A DNA stretch of 64,000 bases from an uncultured Acidobacteriota bacterium (GTDB taxonomy: Bacteria; Acidobacteriota; UBA6911; RPQK01; JAPXNP01): NCBI GenBank assembly GCA_963777605.1, contig CAVZRV010000035.1:160001-224000 (forward strand), given 5' to 3'. Shown piece after piece: positions 6,271-56,208 of the stretch. Within the stretch, counting starts at the first letter, position 1; every line of letters starts with the position of its first letter. The translations under genes were made by a program, and so were the position numbers. Under the pieces are notes generated by a model. That model had not been told where the DNA came from. It worked only from the letters and a program-made list of their open reading frames with translations, and did no database searches.

Positions 6271-6638
6271 GGATTCGTCCCTTCATGAAAGGAACCGAAG
6301 GACTGATCGATCAGGTACGAAGACTGACGTACTCATTGCCTTCACTCGGTTTCCGGCGGTTGCCCGCCGCGTTATTCACCGCGCTTGCTGCCCAACCGGG
6401 GTCCTGAAATTTGGAAAGCAGGAAAGGGCGGTTTCTGGAAAGACTTGAGAGCCTATATGACTCAGACGAGTCAACTGATTCAGGATTGCGGAGGATAATT
6501 TTCAATTACCCGATTCGACGCCCCCATAAAGTCAGACCTGTCTTGGTCCTCAACCGGGCTTCACCCCCTCAACGTTGCGTCTCTGTGTGGACCCGGGTAG
6601 AGTACGGAGGTGGTCACAAGTCGGAGACAGAGTACGGA

Positions 6639-7985
6639 ATGAGCGACCGGACTGAAGGGCACGAAGGGGCGGAGTTCCGGGGAAGTGGCGAGCGCACCCG
6701 GACGATTCGGGTGCGCAGCGTTGATTCCAATTTCGAGAGGGAACCGCTCATCCGTCCGTTCGGTTTCAAAGGGGGGCACATGTCGGAGATCTGGCAGTCC
6801 GCGGCCCTCTTGGAAAGTGACAGCGGTGCTCGCCGGATCGGACTCTGCTCGCAGAGCGTTCTCTGGTCCGACGACAGGGTCTTTGCTTCGCACTCAGAAA
6901 GCGGGGGCAACGCGGTGATGTACGCCCTCACCGAGCGCGCCCTCCACATCGTCCGGGGGATGACTTTCACAACGCCGATCGAATTGCTGGACGAGATCTA
7001 CGACGAAGTCTACCGGCAGGGCCAGCTCATCTCGGGTAATCCCGAGCTGCGCAAGACGTTCGCTCTCAACGCCCTGGTCGGAGTGGACAACGCCGCATGG
7101 CTCCTCTACGCACAAGAAAACGATATCCGAACTTTCGACGAAATGATCCCGCCCCCGTACCGGGACGCCCTGGCGAACCATCACAGCGAACTCGCCGCGA
7201 TCCCGCTGATGTCCTATGCGGTTCCAATCGAGGAAATCCGAGAGGCGGTCAACGAAGGCCAGTTCTTCCTGAAGATCAAAATTGGCCAGCCCGGTACCCA
7301 GGAAGAGATGCTGGAGAAGGACAAGGCCCGAATCACCGCCATTCACAAGGCGATCGGCCACACCGAAACGCGTCACACCCGGTCAGGCAAACTCCCCTAC
7401 TACTTCGACGCGAACGGGAGGTACCAGCAAAAAGAGACCTTGATGCGCTTGATCGACCATACGAAGGAGATCGGCGCCTTCGAGCAGATCGCCATCATAG
7501 AAGAGCCCTTTCCGGAAGAGTACGAGGCCTCAGTCGATGACCTGGGCGTCCGCATCGCGGCCGATGAGAGCGCCCACACCGACCGGGAAGCGGCCAGGCG
7601 AATCGAGATGGGGTACGGGGCGATCGCGCTCAAGGCAATCGCCAAGACCCTTAGCATGACTCTGAAGATCGCGAAACTGGCCCGCGAGAAGCAGGTGCCC
7701 TGTTTCTGTGCCGATCTCACGGTCAATCCAATCCTCGTGGAATGGAACAAGAACGTGGCGGCCCGGCTGGACCCGTTTCCGGAACTGGGGCTGGGGCTCC
7801 TGGAAACCAATGGACATCAGAACTACCGGAACTGGGAAGAAATGGTGAAGCGTCATCCTTTTCCCGGAGCCGCCTGGCGCGAGGCCAAGGACGGGATCTT
7901 CCGGCTCGACGGCGACTACTACGGCCGAAGTGGCGGCATCTTCGACCCGTCCCCCCACTACGAGCGCCTCTTCCAAAATCGGTGA
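6639..7985 (+). CDS. Enolase superfamily enzyme (MLE/dipeptide epimerase-like subgroup), substrate unknown
   Basis: KIK (KxK), FDANG, IEEPF, AADES and ALKAIAK catalytic/metal motifs. ATG 6639 preferred over the track's TTG 6411. Confidence 0.75.
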   Translation: MSDRTEGHEGAEFRGSGERTRTIRVRSVDSNFEREPLIRPFGFKGGHMSEIWQSAALLESDSGARRIGLCSQSVLWSDDRVFASHSESGGNAVMYALTERALHIVRGMTFTTPIELLDEIYDEVYRQGQLISGNPELRKTFALNALVGVDNAAWLLYAQENDIRTFDEMIPPPYRDALANHHSELAAIPLMSYAVPIEEIREAVNEGQFFLKIKIGQPGTQEEMLEKDKARITAIHKAIGHTETRHTRSGKLPYYFDANGRYQQKETLMRLIDHTKEIGAFEQIAIIEEPFPEEYEASVDDLGVRIAADESAHTDREAARRIEMGYGAIALKAIAKTLSMTLKIAKLAREKQVPCFCADLTVNPILVEWNKNVAARLDPFPELGLGLLETNGHQNYRNWEEMVKRHPFPGAAWREAKDGIFRLDGDYYGRSGGIFDPSPHYERLFQNR

Positions 7986-51977: not shown

Positions 51978-52013
51978 TTGCTTTGGCAACGTCATTATGT
52001 ATAATTATGCACA
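51978..52013 (+). promoter_or_regulatory. Sigma70-type promoter overlapped by an ARG box (ArgR operator)
   Basis: TTGCTT (51978)-16 nt-TATAAT (52000). TATGTATAATTATGCACA (51996-52013) matches the wnTGAATAATTATTCAnw ARG consensus with 2 mismatches. Confidence 0.75.
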
Positions 52014-52129
52014 TCATGCATTGGACCGGACACAGACCTGACCGACCCGGCCTTTTGAGGCGTCCCTTCTACAGGCGCTAGCACCCCGCGCTTTCCAGGC
52101 GCGAACCATAACGTCAATCTCCAACGGAA

Positions 52130-52147
52130 GTTGTATTTCCATGCATA
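52130..52147 (+). promoter_or_regulatory. Second, weaker ARG box overlapping the start codon
   Basis: GTTGTATTTCCATGCATA (TGnAT-n4-ATGCA). Confidence 0.5.
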
Positions 52148-53232
52148 TTCAAAGCGTTTCAAACCAGTATTCAATGCCTTCGACATCCAAAGCGGCAGGA
52201 GGGATTGTCCCGGATTTGGTGAGTTCCTGTGCAGGGACGCTGGACCTGGCATTTCCACTGAAAACGGCCGAGATCGCCAACCCGGGAGCGGGTGATGTCG
52301 TGCTTGCCAGGGTGGAAGAAGTCAACCCGGCCTACCCGGCCATGGAACTTCCCGATGGAACCGACATCATTCTCGAACCGGGGATGAAGATTGTCGGAGC
52401 GCTGGGTACGCGCAAGGCCCTTCACGGGTTTTCCGGTCGAATCCCCCACCCCCTTTTCATCGGGCAACACATCCAGTTGCTCAACAAGGGTGGAGTGATC
52501 GGCGAATGCACGGCCTTTCATCGGAACCTGGAATGGCCGACGCTGCTGACCTACCTCGGCACCGTCGTCGAGGGAGATCGTCCCGTCAACCTGCGTGACA
52601 GTGCGCTCCCCTTCGTTGACCGGGAATTGCCCAAGATCCCGTTGGTATTCGTTCTCGGGACCTGCATGAACTCGGGAAAGACAACCGTCTGCAAAACCAT
52701 CATTGACGGTTTCAGCAAGCGCGGCTACCACATCAACTCGGGCAAAGTGGCGGGTGTTGCATGTCGGCGTGATCTGAACGTGATGAAGCAATCGGGATCG
52801 AAGCGGGTGCTGAGTTTCCACGACTTCGGACTCCCCTCCAGCGCCGACGTTCCTTCGTTGGTGCCGGTCGCACGATCGATTGTCCACCATCTGGCCGAGC
52901 CAGAGCCCGATTTCATCGTCCTGGAGATGGGCGACGGAATCCTCGGCGGATACAACGTAGCGTCTTTGTTCGACGACAAGGAGTTCCTGAGCCGCCGGGC
53001 AGCCACGGTGATCTGTGCGAACGATCTCATGGGTACCTGGGGTGCGTTGGAATGGCTTCGGCAACACGACGTAGACACGGCCCACGAACCGATCCTGGTC
53101 TCGGGTCCGGTGACTGACAGCTGCGAAGGCGTCAAGTACATCGAAGACAACTGGGACGTCCAGGCCGCGAATCCATTCGACAGTTCCGGTAAGCTCTGCA
53201 GCTTCGTCCTGAAGAGCCTCCGGCCATGTTGA
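52141..53232 (+). CDS. DUF1611/DgcN-like P-loop protein, first gene of the arg operon
   Basis: GDVVLARV, GTCMNSGKTT, GKVAG, DFGLPS and VLEMGDG motifs typical of DUF1611-type proteins; 3' end overlaps argC. Confidence 0.72.
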   Translation: MHIQSVSNQYSMPSTSKAAGGIVPDLVSSCAGTLDLAFPLKTAEIANPGAGDVVLARVEEVNPAYPAMELPDGTDIILEPGMKIVGALGTRKALHGFSGRIPHPLFIGQHIQLLNKGGVIGECTAFHRNLEWPTLLTYLGTVVEGDRPVNLRDSALPFVDRELPKIPLVFVLGTCMNSGKTTVCKTIIDGFSKRGYHINSGKVAGVACRRDLNVMKQSGSKRVLSFHDFGLPSSADVPSLVPVARSIVHHLAEPEPDFIVLEMGDGILGGYNVASLFDDKEFLSRRAATVICANDLMGTWGALEWLRQHDVDTAHEPILVSGPVTDSCEGVKYIEDNWDVQAANPFDSSGKLCSFVLKSLRPC

Positions 53233-54236
53233 AAGTTGGAATTGCAGGCGGCTCAGGTTACGGTGGGCTGGAACTGATCAGCGTCCTGTTGCGGCACCCC
53301 GAGGTGGAGATTGTCTCAATCTCGTCTGAGCGGCACTCCGGGAAAGAGGTCTGCCAACTCTATCCCCACCTGCGGGGAATCGTTTCGCTGACGTTCTGTC
53401 CCCTGGAGGAAACAGTGGCGGCGGAGACCGACGTACTCTTCCTTGCCCTTCCTCACGGCGAGGCGATGAAGATCGCCCCAAAGGTCCCGGCTGGGAGAGC
53501 GCTGATCGATCTCAGTGGGGATTTTCGGATCAGCGACCCCGAAACCTTCGCAAAGTACTACGGCTTTCCGATGACCAGCGTCGCCGAGCAGTCCAAATTC
53601 GTTTACGGTCTCCCGGAAATCAACCGCGAGTCGATTCGCGGCAAGCGGCGCGTCGCCAACCCAGGCTGCTTCGCAACCGCCACCCTGCTGGCCCTGTTTC
53701 CCCTCTACCAGGAAGGCTGGGTTGAAGGTTCGGTCTACGTTGATTCAAAGACGGGCTCGTCCGGATCGGGTCGAACACCAAGCGACAAGACCCACCATCC
53801 CCGGCGTAGCCACGCCTTTTTTCCCTACAAGCCGTTCATCCACCAGCACGTCCCCGAGATGCGGCAGATCCTCGACAACCCCGGCAACCCGCTGATCTTC
53901 CAGGCTCACTCGACTCCGCTCGTCCGTGGTATCTTCGCCAGCCACTACATGCAGCTCAAACAACCGAAGACCGCAGCCCAAGTGGAGGACCTCTTCAGCG
54001 GCTACTACGGAGCCGAGCCGTTCATCCGCTGGGAACCAGGCAATCCCGATATCTGTAACGTCGAACACTCCAACTACGTGGATATTGCCGCAGCAACCGA
54101 TGGGGAACACCTGATCGTCTGGTCGGCTCTGGACAACCTCCAAAAGGGAGCGGCCGGACAGGCCGTTCAAAACATGAACATCATCTGCGGATTCGAGGAG
54201 ACTACCGCCCTCGAGCAGGCTCCGCTCTTCCCATAA
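53226..54236 (+). CDS. argC: N-acetyl-gamma-glutamyl-phosphate reductase
   Basis: GGSGYGG, DLSGDFR, YGLPE, ANPGCF and DNLQKGAAGQAVQ. Confidence 0.93.
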   Translation: MLKVGIAGGSGYGGLELISVLLRHPEVEIVSISSERHSGKEVCQLYPHLRGIVSLTFCPLEETVAAETDVLFLALPHGEAMKIAPKVPAGRALIDLSGDFRISDPETFAKYYGFPMTSVAEQSKFVYGLPEINRESIRGKRRVANPGCFATATLLALFPLYQEGWVEGSVYVDSKTGSSGSGRTPSDKTHHPRRSHAFFPYKPFIHQHVPEMRQILDNPGNPLIFQAHSTPLVRGIFASHYMQLKQPKTAAQVEDLFSGYYGAEPFIRWEPGNPDICNVEHSNYVDIAAATDGEHLIVWSALDNLQKGAAGQAVQNMNIICGFEETTALEQAPLFP

Positions 54237-54238
54237 CT

Positions 54239-55399
54239 ATGGACAACACTCAATACATTTCCATTAAGCAACTTGAAGACCGCTACCAGGTCAACACCTA
54301 TGCCAAGCTCCCCATCTTGATCGATCGGGGGGAGGGCTGTTTCGTTTTCGACCAGGACGGAAAACGCTACCTGGACCTCTATGCCGGGCATGCAGTAACT
54401 GCGACCGGGCACTGCCACCCGTCCGTGGTTGCCGCCATCCAGCGGCAAGCCTCCCAGTTGATCTTCTACTCCAACGCCACCTACAGCTCAACACGAAGCC
54501 TGGCCCTCGAGAAACTGATCGAATTGTCCCGCCCCTACCACCAGGCATTCCTGGTGAACTCCGGCGCCGAGGCCAACGAGAACGCCATCAAGCTCGCCCG
54601 CGCGTTGACCCGTCGACGGGAAGTCATTTCAACCGTCAACGCCTTTCACGGCCGGACCTACGGCAGCCTCTCCGCAACCGGCATCGAGAAATATCGCAAT
54701 TTCCTGAACACCCCCGTTCCCGGCCACCGCATCTTGCCCTTCGAAAAGGTTGCAGGGTCGGTTTCCGAGAAGACCGCCGCAGTATTGATCGAGCCAATTC
54801 AGAGCATGGGCGGGGTCGTCACGATCCCGATCTCCACGATCCAGGAGATCGCCCGCTCCTGCCAGGCGGCCGGGGCGCTGTTGATTTTCGACGAGATCCA
54901 GACTGGCGTCGGACGCACAGGCGGAACCTTCCTCTATTCCCAGAAACTCGACGTCGTTCCGGACCTGACCTCCCTGGCCAAGGGAATCGCTTCCGGCTAT
55001 CCGGCCGGGGCCGTTCTCATGACCGAGGAGATAGCGGGCCGGGTCAACCCGGGGGACCTGGGCACTACGTTCGGAGGGAATCCGCTGGCTTGCGCTGCCA
55101 TCCTTTCTACACTTCAGGTGATTCAGGAGGAAGGCCTTCTCGCCCAGGTTGATGACGTTTCCGGCTACCTCCGGGATTCTCTCGCGGAACTTCCGGTCAT
55201 AGAGGAACTGCGGGGCGACGGTCTCCTGTTGGGGATCCGGTTCAAAGGGTTGACGGCCAAGGAGGCACAGAAGCGTCTCCTGGAGGCCTTCATTCTTACC
55301 GGGACCTCCTACGATCCGTCCGTACTTCGCCTGATGCCTCCTCTGACCCTTGGCCGGGACGAGGCCGACATCTTCATTGAGGCGGTGAGATCGCTATGA
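54239..55399 (+). CDS. argD: Acetylornithine aminotransferase (class III PLP)
   Basis: NSGAEANE, FHGRT, FDEIQTG, LAKG and TTFGGNP; arg operon context. Confidence 0.88.
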   Translation: MDNTQYISIKQLEDRYQVNTYAKLPILIDRGEGCFVFDQDGKRYLDLYAGHAVTATGHCHPSVVAAIQRQASQLIFYSNATYSSTRSLALEKLIELSRPYHQAFLVNSGAEANENAIKLARALTRRREVISTVNAFHGRTYGSLSATGIEKYRNFLNTPVPGHRILPFEKVAGSVSEKTAAVLIEPIQSMGGVVTIPISTIQEIARSCQAAGALLIFDEIQTGVGRTGGTFLYSQKLDVVPDLTSLAKGIASGYPAGAVLMTEEIAGRVNPGDLGTTFGGNPLACAAILSTLQVIQEEGLLAQVDDVSGYLRDSLAELPVIEELRGDGLLLGIRFKGLTAKEAQKRLLEAFILTGTSYDPSVLRLMPPLTLGRDEADIFIEAVRSL

Positions 55400-56208
55400 A
55401 GCTCATCCTGAAGCTGAGTGGGAAGGTACTGGAGGAGGCCGGCCTGCGCCGGTCGCTTGGACAACAGATCGCCCAGCTCAATCGGGCCGGGCATCAACTG
55501 CTCCTGGTGCACGGAGGCGGAAAGCAGCTGTCGGACTTCTGCCGGGACACTGGGTTACCGGTTGTCCAGGTCCAGGGCCGGCGGGTAACCGACGAGCGCA
55601 CTCTGGAAGCAGCCAAGAAGGTCTTTGGTGCGGTCAATGCGGACCTCACAGTGAGTCTGCTGGCCGAAGGAGTCCCCGCTGTCGGGATCTCCGCTTTCGA
55701 CGGGTTCCTGACCCGGAGCAGACGGCGGCCACCGCTGGCTCTGCAAGTAGATGATCGAGTCGAGACGGTCGATTTCGGCCTCGTTGGAGAACTTCAGTCG
55801 GTGGATCGGAGCCTGGTGGATGCGCTTTGGGCGGCCGGCTATGTGCCGGTGGTCAGCTGCCTCTGCAGTTCTCCCAACGGGCAGATTCTCAATATCAATG
55901 CCGACACACTCTCTACCGAACTGTCGGTGGCGCTCGCCGCAGACCGACTGGTTGCGGTTTCCGACGTCGGTGGAATCTACCTGGACCCGGCGCGCGCCGA
56001 AACCCGCATCGAACACCTCGGCCTGGTAGAGGCGCGAAAGCTGTTGCGGGAAGGCGTCTTCCTGGATGGGATGATCCCCAAGGTCGAAAACGCCATCCGC
56101 CTGATCGAGCAGGGCGTCGATAATTTCCAGGTGCTGAGCGGACTCCAGGAAGGGGCGTTGGCCAACTGCCTGGATGGGCAAACCGGGACGCTCCTGTCAC
56201 GGGAGTAA
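55396..56208 (+). CDS. argB: Acetylglutamate kinase
   Basis: KLSG, VHGGG, GRRVTD, NINAD and GMIPK. Confidence 0.9.
   Translation: MKLILKLSGKVLEEAGLRRSLGQQIAQLNRAGHQLLLVHGGGKQLSDFCRDTGLPVVQVQGRRVTDERTLEAAKKVFGAVNADLTVSLLAEGVPAVGISAFDGFLTRSRRRPPLALQVDDRVETVDFGLVGELQSVDRSLVDALWAAGYVPVVSCLCSSPNGQILNINADTLSTELSVALAADRLVAVSDVGGIYLDPARAETRIEHLGLVEARKLLREGVFLDGMIPKVENAIRLIEQGVDNFQVLSGLQEGALANCLDGQTGTLLSRE

Follow-up and report, generated by a model that had tools for sequence, protein, structure and literature searches.

Which enzyme makes the first intermediate of arginine synthesis in a genome that has neither ArgA nor ArgJ? The question is raised by a 64,000-nucleotide stretch of DNA from an uncultured Acidobacteriota bacterium (contig CAVZRV010000035.1 of assembly GCA_963777605.1), which we call the window and in which four tightly packed plus-strand genes form an arginine operon. 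The operon is headed by an open reading frame (ORF) at 52141..53232, the gene under study, for which we use the working name ORFX. Our comparison covers anatomy, synteny, phyletic pattern and remote homology, from which we infer a reaction, an acyl group, a donor and a mode of regulation. Judged from these sequence comparisons, ORFX is probably a first-step N-acyl-L-glutamate synthase that replaces ArgA and ArgJ. The genes of the operon are these:

52141..53232, plus strand: ORFX, 363 amino acids, candidate N-acyl-L-glutamate synthase
53226..54236, plus strand: argC (TIGR01850, 365.7 bits against a cut-off of 233.6)
54239..55399, plus strand: argD-type class III aminotransferase (PF00202, Aminotran_3, 326.6 bits)
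55396..56208, plus strand: argB, N-acylglutamate kinase (TIGR00761, 172.5 bits against a cut-off of 151.3)

The ORFX stop and the argC start overlap by 7 nucleotides, and argD and argB overlap by 4. The argD-type gene falls under the argD-type NCBIfam cut-offs (TIGR00707, 343 bits against 410). ORF calls and family scans match the layout given in the original prediction, which had been made from the window alone and had proposed ORFX as a DUF1611/DgcN-like N-acetylglutamate synthase. A separate ORF in the same direction lies downstream of argB, from 56409; by eye, we take it to encode an actin-like MreB.

An arginine operon with an unassigned gene

The window was said to hold no argA or argJ, and we find that this extends to the whole genome: a search of its 6.73 Mb (96.7% complete) found no ArgJ, no LysW and no ArgA domain beyond the argB match. 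ORFX itself has no amino-acid-kinase plus GNAT match and no ArgJ match in Pfam or NCBIfam. Classical ArgA, an amino-acid kinase joined to a GNAT domain, and ArgJ both supply N-acylglutamate for ArgB. They have no sequence relationship to ORFX, both are missing from this genome, and their distribution is complementary to that of ORFX. We propose that ORFX is a non-orthologous replacement for them that would N-acylate L-glutamate. The resulting N-acylglutamate would feed ArgB, ArgC and ArgD, made from the same translationally coupled and presumably ArgR-controlled transcript.

Linkage to arginine genes extends across the phylum. Strong ORFX hits (E<=7e-60) occur in 104 genomes and are set off by a clear gap from 16 weak hits at 9e-50 or worse; the surroundings (20 kb each) were retrieved for 49 strong loci, which represent about 23 families, and for 11 weak ones. 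In every one of the 49 strong loci, argC follows ORFX directly and in the same orientation. The order first seen in the window is kept in this respect throughout, and the rest of the pathway is usually close by: argB is present in 49 loci, argD in 44, a carbamoyltransferase in 42, argR in 40, argG in 39, argH in 37 and an M20 deacylase in 24. In Pyrinomonas, the layout is argR-argG-ORFX-argC-argD-argF'-argB, preceded by argH on the opposite strand. In family f40, the genes of the cluster argD-argF'-argB-M20-argH-argG-ORFX-argC are packed too closely to accommodate a further one. These eight-gene clusters supply a gene for all steps except the first, and ORFX is the sole gene without a step; by elimination, ORFX would be the first enzyme. 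A complete, streamlined f40 genome of 1.2 Mb (G329, locus L065) keeps the whole cluster, ORFX included.

The phyletic pattern was assessed in 401 genomes of the phylum. argC (threshold E<=1e-30) is found in 251 of them, ArgJ (PF01960) in 120, full-length ArgA above cut-off in 6 and a strong ORFX hit in 104. All 104 ORFX genomes have argC, as do 118 of the 120 ArgJ genomes. Co-occurrence is nil: the anti-correlation with argA and argJ that the original prediction had proposed to test holds throughout, with ArgJ in 0/104 ORFX genomes and full-length ArgA in 0/104. These tallies include three unpublished genomes, two with ORFX and argC (G024, G049) and one with ArgJ and a weak paralogue (G152); without them the counts are 102 for ORFX, 117 for ArgJ and 248 for argC, and the overlap is still 0. 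The ORFX and ArgJ states both occur within families f9, f30 and f34. Together, the absence of argA, argJ and lysW from the window's own genome, the unbroken linkage to argC and the lack of co-occurrence with ArgJ or ArgA bear out the idea that ORFX fills the slot of a missing first enzyme.

Twenty-nine argC genomes have none of ORFX, ArgJ and ArgA. Two of these (G053, G273) have fragmentary ORFX hits at contig ends, and six are the Pyrinomonadaceae taken up below. Eight other such loci were fetched, and six have the layout argC-gap-argB-argD or argC-gap-argB with an argB match that is 27-31% identical; the ArgC sequences of these six form a clade of their own. The distance between argC and argB is 640-860 bp in the gap-layout loci (L203-L205, L208-L210) and in second gene sets at L068 and L069. 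From their sequences, these argC/argB/argD-like sets are possibly a LysW-type amino-group-carrier system.

Several other candidates were considered and set aside. No GNAT was found hidden in arginine clusters or in ORFX-less operons among the loci scanned. Long open frames of up to 867 amino acids that resembled ORFX fusions are artefacts of high G+C content; Pfam scans of two of them (L061, L045) show separate adjacent genes. The 11 weak-hit loci contain no arg gene within their 20 kb, and we rejected the reading of the weak hits as true DUF1611 proteins: they are a separate paralogous group of the same superfamily, without arg linkage. The neighbours of this group (L082-L092; E 1e-40 to 1e-50 against the ORFX family alignment A1, described below) include peptidases of the M20 and M28 families, an ATP-grasp enzyme of the YheC/D type and a subunit of a haem-copper oxidase. 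At locus L050 (G313:C4:76900-96899), ORFX is split in two, and argC and argD are matched over part of their length only, so that the locus looks like a decaying arg cluster; genome G313 also carries a non-arg ORFX paralogue.

The ORFX protein and its remote relatives

Three features of the protein recur in the argument:

52141..52620, plus strand: N-terminal domain, about residues 1-160, with conserved Gly-rich motifs
52657..52683, plus strand: Walker A motif (P-loop) GTCMNSGKT, residues 173-181, canonical; aligns with the DUF1611 GTDxxxGK motif
52921..52938, plus strand: Walker-B-like LEMGDG, residues 261-266; aligns with the DUF1611 EGQGS motif

The P-loop picked out in the original prediction is real. 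In an alignment of 47 ORFX-family sequences (A1), about 47 positions are invariant, among them the Walker A residues G173, T174, M176, G179, K180 and T181, the acidic D257, and E262, G264, D265 and G266. Invariant positions of the N-terminal domain are G51, Y65, E69, R91, N115 and G117-G118; this domain would be the likely glutamate-binding part of the protein.

Searches of family collections name almost nothing. Pfam has no family for ORFX at E<=0.01, and at E<=10 only MobB (0.074) and AAA_26 (0.27) appear, both on the P-loop; NCBIfam gives only a 38-residue MobB-like stretch. The sub-threshold P-loop matches in family searches were to MobB, CbiA, AAA_26 and a dethiobiotin synthetase (DTBS) structure in PDB (0.34). 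Searches of PDB sequences with ORFX alone and with the A1 profile returned P-loop noise only, and a PDB search with a profile of the N-terminal domain (A3) returned nothing credible, the best match being a designed protein at E 0.26. The whole protein retrieves only unnamed clusters from the ESM Atlas.

The family is large. A word-indexed search finds 371 homologues at E<=1e-3, and the named ones are all 'hypothetical protein' from Acidobacteriota or Blastocatellia metagenome-assembled genomes (MAGs). An exhaustive HMMER search finds 1,829 clusters (50% identity) at E<=1e-3, of which 496 are at E<=1e-30. A scan of one genome per species confirms at least 581 ORFX loci; the best 80 of these are nearly all from Acidobacteriota, including the cultured Pyrinomonas methylaliphatogenes K22. 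Members of ORFX-family clusters are also labelled as Pseudomonadota, Deltaproteobacteria and Gemmatimonadota MAGs.

Membership in DUF1611/DgcN, which had been assigned by motif recognition, is not borne out by profile hidden Markov models (HMMs). ORFX has no match to PF07755 at E<=10 (gathering cut-off 25 bits) and none to NF041892 at E<=0.01; it lacks a Pfam or NCBIfam match of its own, and the remote likeness is confined to the C-terminal half with the P-loop. The window's own genome, searched in six frames for PF07755, gave 0 matches, so that no true DUF1611 was found there. Among the relatives of ORFX, 33 of 47 touch PF07755 at E<=0.1, the best at 1.2e-5. For comparison, an alignment (A2) was made of nine true DUF1611 proteins that also come from this phylum; all nine match NF041892, 'N-acetyltransferase DgcN' (best 8.9e-77). 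The A2 profile finds PDB 2G0T, 2OBN and 7XRJ; the A1 profile finds none of the three. When A1 and A2 are compared directly with hhalign, they match with 75% probability (E 2.5e-5, 174 columns) within ORFX residues 163-363 only, and GTCMNSGKT is paired with GTDSAVGKRT and LEMGDG with EGQGS. True DUF1611 genes occur in 21 of 121 genomes of the phylum, including two ORFX genomes (G089, G101), and a quick tree separates the DUF1611 proteins from ORFX by a very long branch. Our comparisons suggest that the catalytic half of ORFX is a SIMIBI-type P-loop domain; 'remote relative of DUF1611' would be the right family label for ORFX.

ORFX and DgcN/DUF1611 (PF07755 plus DUF1611_N) thus share a C-terminal P-loop GTxxxxGK with an E-G-x-G motif and, as we propose for ORFX, the N-acylation of glutamate. 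They differ in the N-terminal domain, which is unrelated; the first 160 residues of ORFX lie outside the hhalign match and show no DUF1611_N domain. The Walker A motif also differs, being a canonical GKT in ORFX and GK-R/x-T in the DUF1611 set. DgcN acts on D-glutamate in catabolism. Its activity is that of a D-glutamate acetyltransferase (Price et al., GapMind 2026; bioRxiv 10.1101/2024.10.14.618325).

Acyl group, donor and competing explanations

The carbamoyltransferases encoded beside ORFX bear on the acyl group. Acetyl-specific N-acetylornithine carbamoyltransferases are reported to have Glu92, Asn185 and Lys302 (Xanthomonas campestris numbering), and the N-succinyl enzymes have A, S, P, V or Q at position 92, P at 185 and V, I or E at 302 (PMC4581275); the same rule is given for position 90/92 in GapMind 2020 (PMC7311316). 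We mapped these positions through a PDB alignment of the Pyrinomonas enzyme with X. campestris structures, whose engineered variants differ exactly at 92, 185 and 302. The 42 cluster carbamoyltransferases read as follows:

Position 92: A 23, T 8, P 4, S 3, I 2, V 1, unreadable 1; never Glu
Position 185: Pro in 41/41 readable sequences; never Asn
Position 302: E 19, V 12, I 7, K 4 (n=42)

Because 41 of 41 readable carbamoyltransferases lack both Glu92 and Asn185, the pathway intermediate in ArgF'-bearing relatives is probably N-succinyl- rather than N-acetyl-glutamate. [quoted passage not shown] Of the N-acetyl product originally proposed, the first-step N-acylation of L-glutamate fits our data; it is the acetyl group that the succinyl-type carbamoyltransferases of the relatives speak against.

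The window's own lineage is a different case. A carbamoyltransferase is missing from the cluster in seven of the 49 loci, which come from the window's family f1 and from f5, f6 and f9. In the own genome, argG lies at a contig end, and argR and argH stand together, away from the operon. The only carbamoyltransferase is an ordinary ornithine carbamoyltransferase (OTCase; TIGR00658, 388 bits against 280.85); the best match to the acyl-ornithine carbamoyltransferase model reaches 167 bits against 288, and there is no ArgF'. The genome also encodes an ArgE/DapE-family deacylase (TIGR01910, 229 bits against 217.6). With this deacylase, an ordinary OTCase and no ArgF', deacylation would take place at the ornithine level, and the late steps of the own lineage would be carried out by the ArgE/DapE-type deacylase and the OTCase. 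The deacylase ORF (321 amino acids; G000:C31:57574..58539, L173 1477..2442, minus strand) starts at about model position 57-61, so that either some ~55 residues typical of the family seem to be missing from its N terminus or the true start lies elsewhere. The OTCase gene is directly preceded by one for an ornithine--oxo-acid aminotransferase (TIGR01885, 558.6 bits; G000:C7:884250..886431, L181 240..2421), and this pair could form an alternative, non-acylated route from glutamate semialdehyde to ornithine or be catabolic. In a quick ArgC tree, f1, f5 and f6 are nested among succinyl-signature lineages (support 98), and all 20 ArgJ-type ArgC sequences form one clade (support 99). This nesting leans weakly towards succinyl for the window too, so that for its own genome we give succinyl a modest preference over acetyl.

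A family-wide N-acetyl-L-glutamate synthase, the exact reading of the original prediction, would perform the same step with an acetyl group. The ordinary OTCase and ArgE/DapE-type deacylase of the own genome are indeed arranged as in the acetyl route of Escherichia coli, and DgcN is an acetyltransferase by its NCBIfam name, yet the own-lineage ArgC is nested among lineages with the succinyl signature. Lys302 is kept in 4 of the 42 cluster carbamoyltransferases, whereas Glu92 or Asn185 is found in 0 of 41 readable ones, and the cluster M20 enzymes fit the DapE desuccinylase model slightly better than the ArgE models. The own argB and argC pass NCBIfam models named for acetyl enzymes, but the argB, argC and argF' models fail to tell acetyl enzymes from succinyl ones, and acetyl/succinyl misannotation is a reported pitfall of such naming (GapMind 2020, PMC7311316). 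We consider an acetyl product throughout the family unlikely. If the product is N-succinylglutamate, ORFX might fail to complement an E. coli argA mutant even with the proposed role correct.

For the donor, an analogy with DgcN mildly favours acyl-CoA over ATP plus a free acid, which would react via an acyl phosphate. The second option is suggested by the intact GKT of the Walker A motif, the invariant acidic residues D257, E262 and D265, and a motif pattern like that of DTBS and CobQ. In dethiobiotin synthetase and enzymes of the CobQ/CobB type, ATP activates a carboxylate or carbamate and a C-N bond is then formed. These SIMIBI amidoligases, which we use as a working analogy, share with ORFX a GTxxxxGKT Walker A and an hhhE-G-x-G Walker B; they differ in that ORFX matches them below threshold and on the P-loop only (AAA_26 0.27, MobB 0.074, DTBS in PDB 0.34). 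One could envision that ORFX, rather than being a CoA-dependent transferase, is a ligase that uses ATP to couple L-glutamate with free succinate or acetate via an acyl phosphate. The own lineage would then be a fourth pathway variant, in which succinylated intermediates extend no further than N-succinylornithine and a DapE/ArgE-type desuccinylase, followed by an ordinary OTCase, takes the place of a succinylornithine carbamoyltransferase of the Bacteroides type. We regard this combination as unlikely; if true, it would be a new chemistry for the first arginine step.

Some of our observations weigh against assigning the first step to ORFX. Related genomes are not independent samples, and an anticorrelation with ArgJ would be expected for any component of a succinyl-type pathway variant. 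The homology to DgcN is weak, covers half of the protein and was missed by the search of HMMs against PDB. The succinyl argument does not apply directly to the window's own genome, which has no ArgF'. Six Pyrinomonadaceae (G181, G301, G319, G354, G370, G394) keep argR-(argG)-argC-argD-argF'-argB with ORFX cleanly absent from its place between argR/argG and argC. These six have no ORFX hit genome-wide and no ArgJ; in five of them (not G370) the ArgA model, run to E 0.01, matches argB only, and the two of their six loci (L197-L202) that were scanned contain no GNAT and no recognisable substitute. Since their ArgC sequences are nested among ORFX-bearing sisters, the absences would be recent losses. 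The persistence of ORFX-less operons implies another source of the first intermediate in Pyrinomonadaceae, and such a source might exist in ORFX genomes too. In one genome (G264), ORFX occurs together with a stand-alone GNAT of 209 amino acids that is homologous to the acetyltransferase domain of N-acetylglutamate synthase (NAGS) (locus L236 2055..2684, minus strand, G264:C5; Neisseria NAGS, PDB 2R8V, E 7e-36).

We examined this short ArgA-like GNAT as a general alternative and rejected it: besides G264, it is present in 1 of 251 genomes (G059, which has a full-length ArgA) and in 0 of 5 ORFX-less genomes. At L198, one of the ORFX-less loci, an ORF of 181 amino acids without a Pfam match lies between argF' and argB (6390..6935, minus strand).

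ORFX could instead be a non-catalytic or accessory P-loop NTPase, such as a regulator, a partner of ArgB or ArgC, or a scaffold, with an unrecognised acyltransferase elsewhere carrying out the first step. The six Pyrinomonadaceae that run the operon without ORFX fit this explanation, and translational coupling with argC would suit a partner protein. The nearest sub-threshold matches, MobB, CbiA and ParA-type NTPases, include several adaptors, but the sole characterised remote relative is an amino-acid N-acyltransferase. An N-terminal domain rich in invariant Gly, Arg, Asn and Glu is typical of a substrate pocket, and no other candidate is found in any compact cluster. Perfect complementarity with ArgJ and ArgA, moreover, is predicted by functional replacement and not by an accessory factor. 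We judge an accessory role quite unlikely.

It is likewise improbable that ORFX performs some other step of the pathway, either as a novel deacylase in place of ArgE or as an ArgJ-like ornithine acyltransferase that recycles the acyl group. ORFX strictly excludes ArgJ, an enzyme with two functions in many bacteria; an ornithine acyltransferase is not needed, however, by lineages that have an acyl-ornithine carbamoyltransferase. An M20 deacylase is present in only 24 of the 49 clusters, and Steroidobacter, which has a protein of very probably the same family (see below), is also described as lacking a recognisable ArgE in GapMind 2026. Yet where M20 and ORFX occur together (those 24 clusters, including all 11 f40 loci fetched), only the first step is left unassigned. 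The own genome has an ArgE/DapE-family deacylase above cut-off, and a P-loop fold with an intact Walker A would correspond to no known hydrolase scaffold. That ORFX is unrelated to arginine and merely carried along with argC is hardly credible: its tie to arginine rests on comparative genomics, but it adjoins argC in all 49 loci, drawn from about 23 families, although the other cluster genes have been rearranged, argC is present in 104/104 ORFX genomes, the gene is retained in a streamlined 1.2 Mb genome, and its promoter contains the conserved ARG-box-like palindrome described below.

Regulation, an earlier prediction and wider meaning

The region upstream of ORFX contains the following elements:

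51978..51983, plus strand: possible -35 hexamer TTGCTT, 16 nucleotides upstream of the -10; weak, 3/6 against TTGACA
52000..52005, plus strand: perfect -10 hexamer TATAAT; a TATAAT/TATAAA box is found in 14/14 orthologous upstream regions
51998..52011, unstranded: ARG-box-like palindrome TGTATAATTATGCA, which encloses the -10 and is kept in orthologous promoters
52059..52079, plus strand: small hairpin (GGCGYC, 9 nucleotides, GGCGCU) in the 5' leader, found in 5/5 close orthologous leaders

The palindrome resembles the ARG-box consensus, and a second ATGCA half-site follows a few bases downstream. In all 14 orthologous upstream regions, the TATAAT/TATAAA box lies inside TGTATAA(T/A)TAT(G/A)CA or a near variant; a second ATGCA often trails the palindrome there, and a TTGACA/TTGCAT-like -35 precedes the box in most. 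The palindrome is rare, with 5 sites at no more than 2 mismatches to the 14-mer in the 6.73 Mb genome. One of these is the operon's own and another is inside argR, immediately upstream of argH. The latter site, TGTATAAATATTCA (G000:C29:354670), is likewise ARG-box-like; it falls within the coding sequence of argR, some 300 bp ahead of argH. The own genome encodes ArgR (96.8 bits), and we infer from the conserved palindrome that ArgR may bind the promoter and regulate the operon. Of the promoter with overlapping ARG box that had been proposed, the perfect TATAAT within a conserved, rare palindrome and the presence of an ArgR gene are in favour; the -35 is weak, and a promoter scanner accepted 0 sites in the upstream region. 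In the 5' leader, an alignment fold of the five close orthologues gives a hairpin of 6 pairs, all invariant or nearly so and without covariation, and an Rfam search of the leader found no match.

The idea that a protein of this kind supplies the first arginine intermediate is already in print. Price et al. (GapMind 2026; bioRxiv 10.1101/2024.10.14.618325; PMC13759103) predict that Steroidobacter ACG33_RS14135 (A0A127FCT3) is the missing ArgA, an alternative N-succinylglutamate synthase. They report that its homologues are virtually always in arg operons and never co-occur with ArgA homologues, that its predicted structure is weakly similar to DgcN by Foldseek (PDB 7XRJ, E 1.4e-7), and that, in 70 neighbouring ArgF' proteins, position 92 is A, P, S or V in 90%, or 97% when I and T are included. 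Their claim is a prediction, and no assay or complementation is reported in the text for this protein. We reached the same four arguments independently for the ORFX family.

The two descriptions match closely. Both concern hypothetical proteins encoded in arg operons with argB, argC, argD, argF', argE, argG, argH and argR; both proteins are very distant relatives of DgcN, do not co-occur with ArgA and have ArgF' neighbours without Glu92. They differ in host: the Steroidobacter system is gammaproteobacterial, and no Acidobacteriota are named in the GapMind 2026 text; the window's ORFX is acidobacterial. From the matching descriptions alone we hold it very probable that the families are identical. 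No Steroidobacter-labelled member of the ORFX family appeared in the cluster look-ups or in a second homologue search. The novelty originally claimed for this candidate first enzyme therefore falls away, and ORFX is a further member of a predicted kind rather than a new idea. What is new here is the window's context, an ordinary OTCase and no ArgF', which is not described in the GapMind 2026 text.

Further literature searches found no paper besides GapMind 2026 on what seems to be the ORFX family. A freshwater study states that Holophagaceae 'lack N-acetylglutamate synthase' (PMC11561045). A known parallel is the Bacteroidetes-type N-acylglutamate synthase BT3761/Cabys_1732, which acts at the step proposed for ORFX, is encoded inside an arg cluster and belongs to the succinylated pathway variant, with a succinylornithine carbamoyltransferase and a desuccinylase (PMC7311316). 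Synthases of the BT3761 type are reported to be limited to Bacteroidetes and Caldithrix (Kublanov 2017, PMC5317091). BT3761 belongs to a protein family other than that of ORFX. We take it to be a GNAT-type protein.

Many genomes are known to show a gap at the first step of arginine synthesis, and the ORFX family would close it for a large part of the Acidobacteriota. If ORFX has the role we propose, succinylated arginine synthesis would be common outside the Bacteroidetes, and ORFX would represent a new fold for N-acylglutamate synthesis. Bacteria that carry it would no longer be miscalled arginine auxotrophs.

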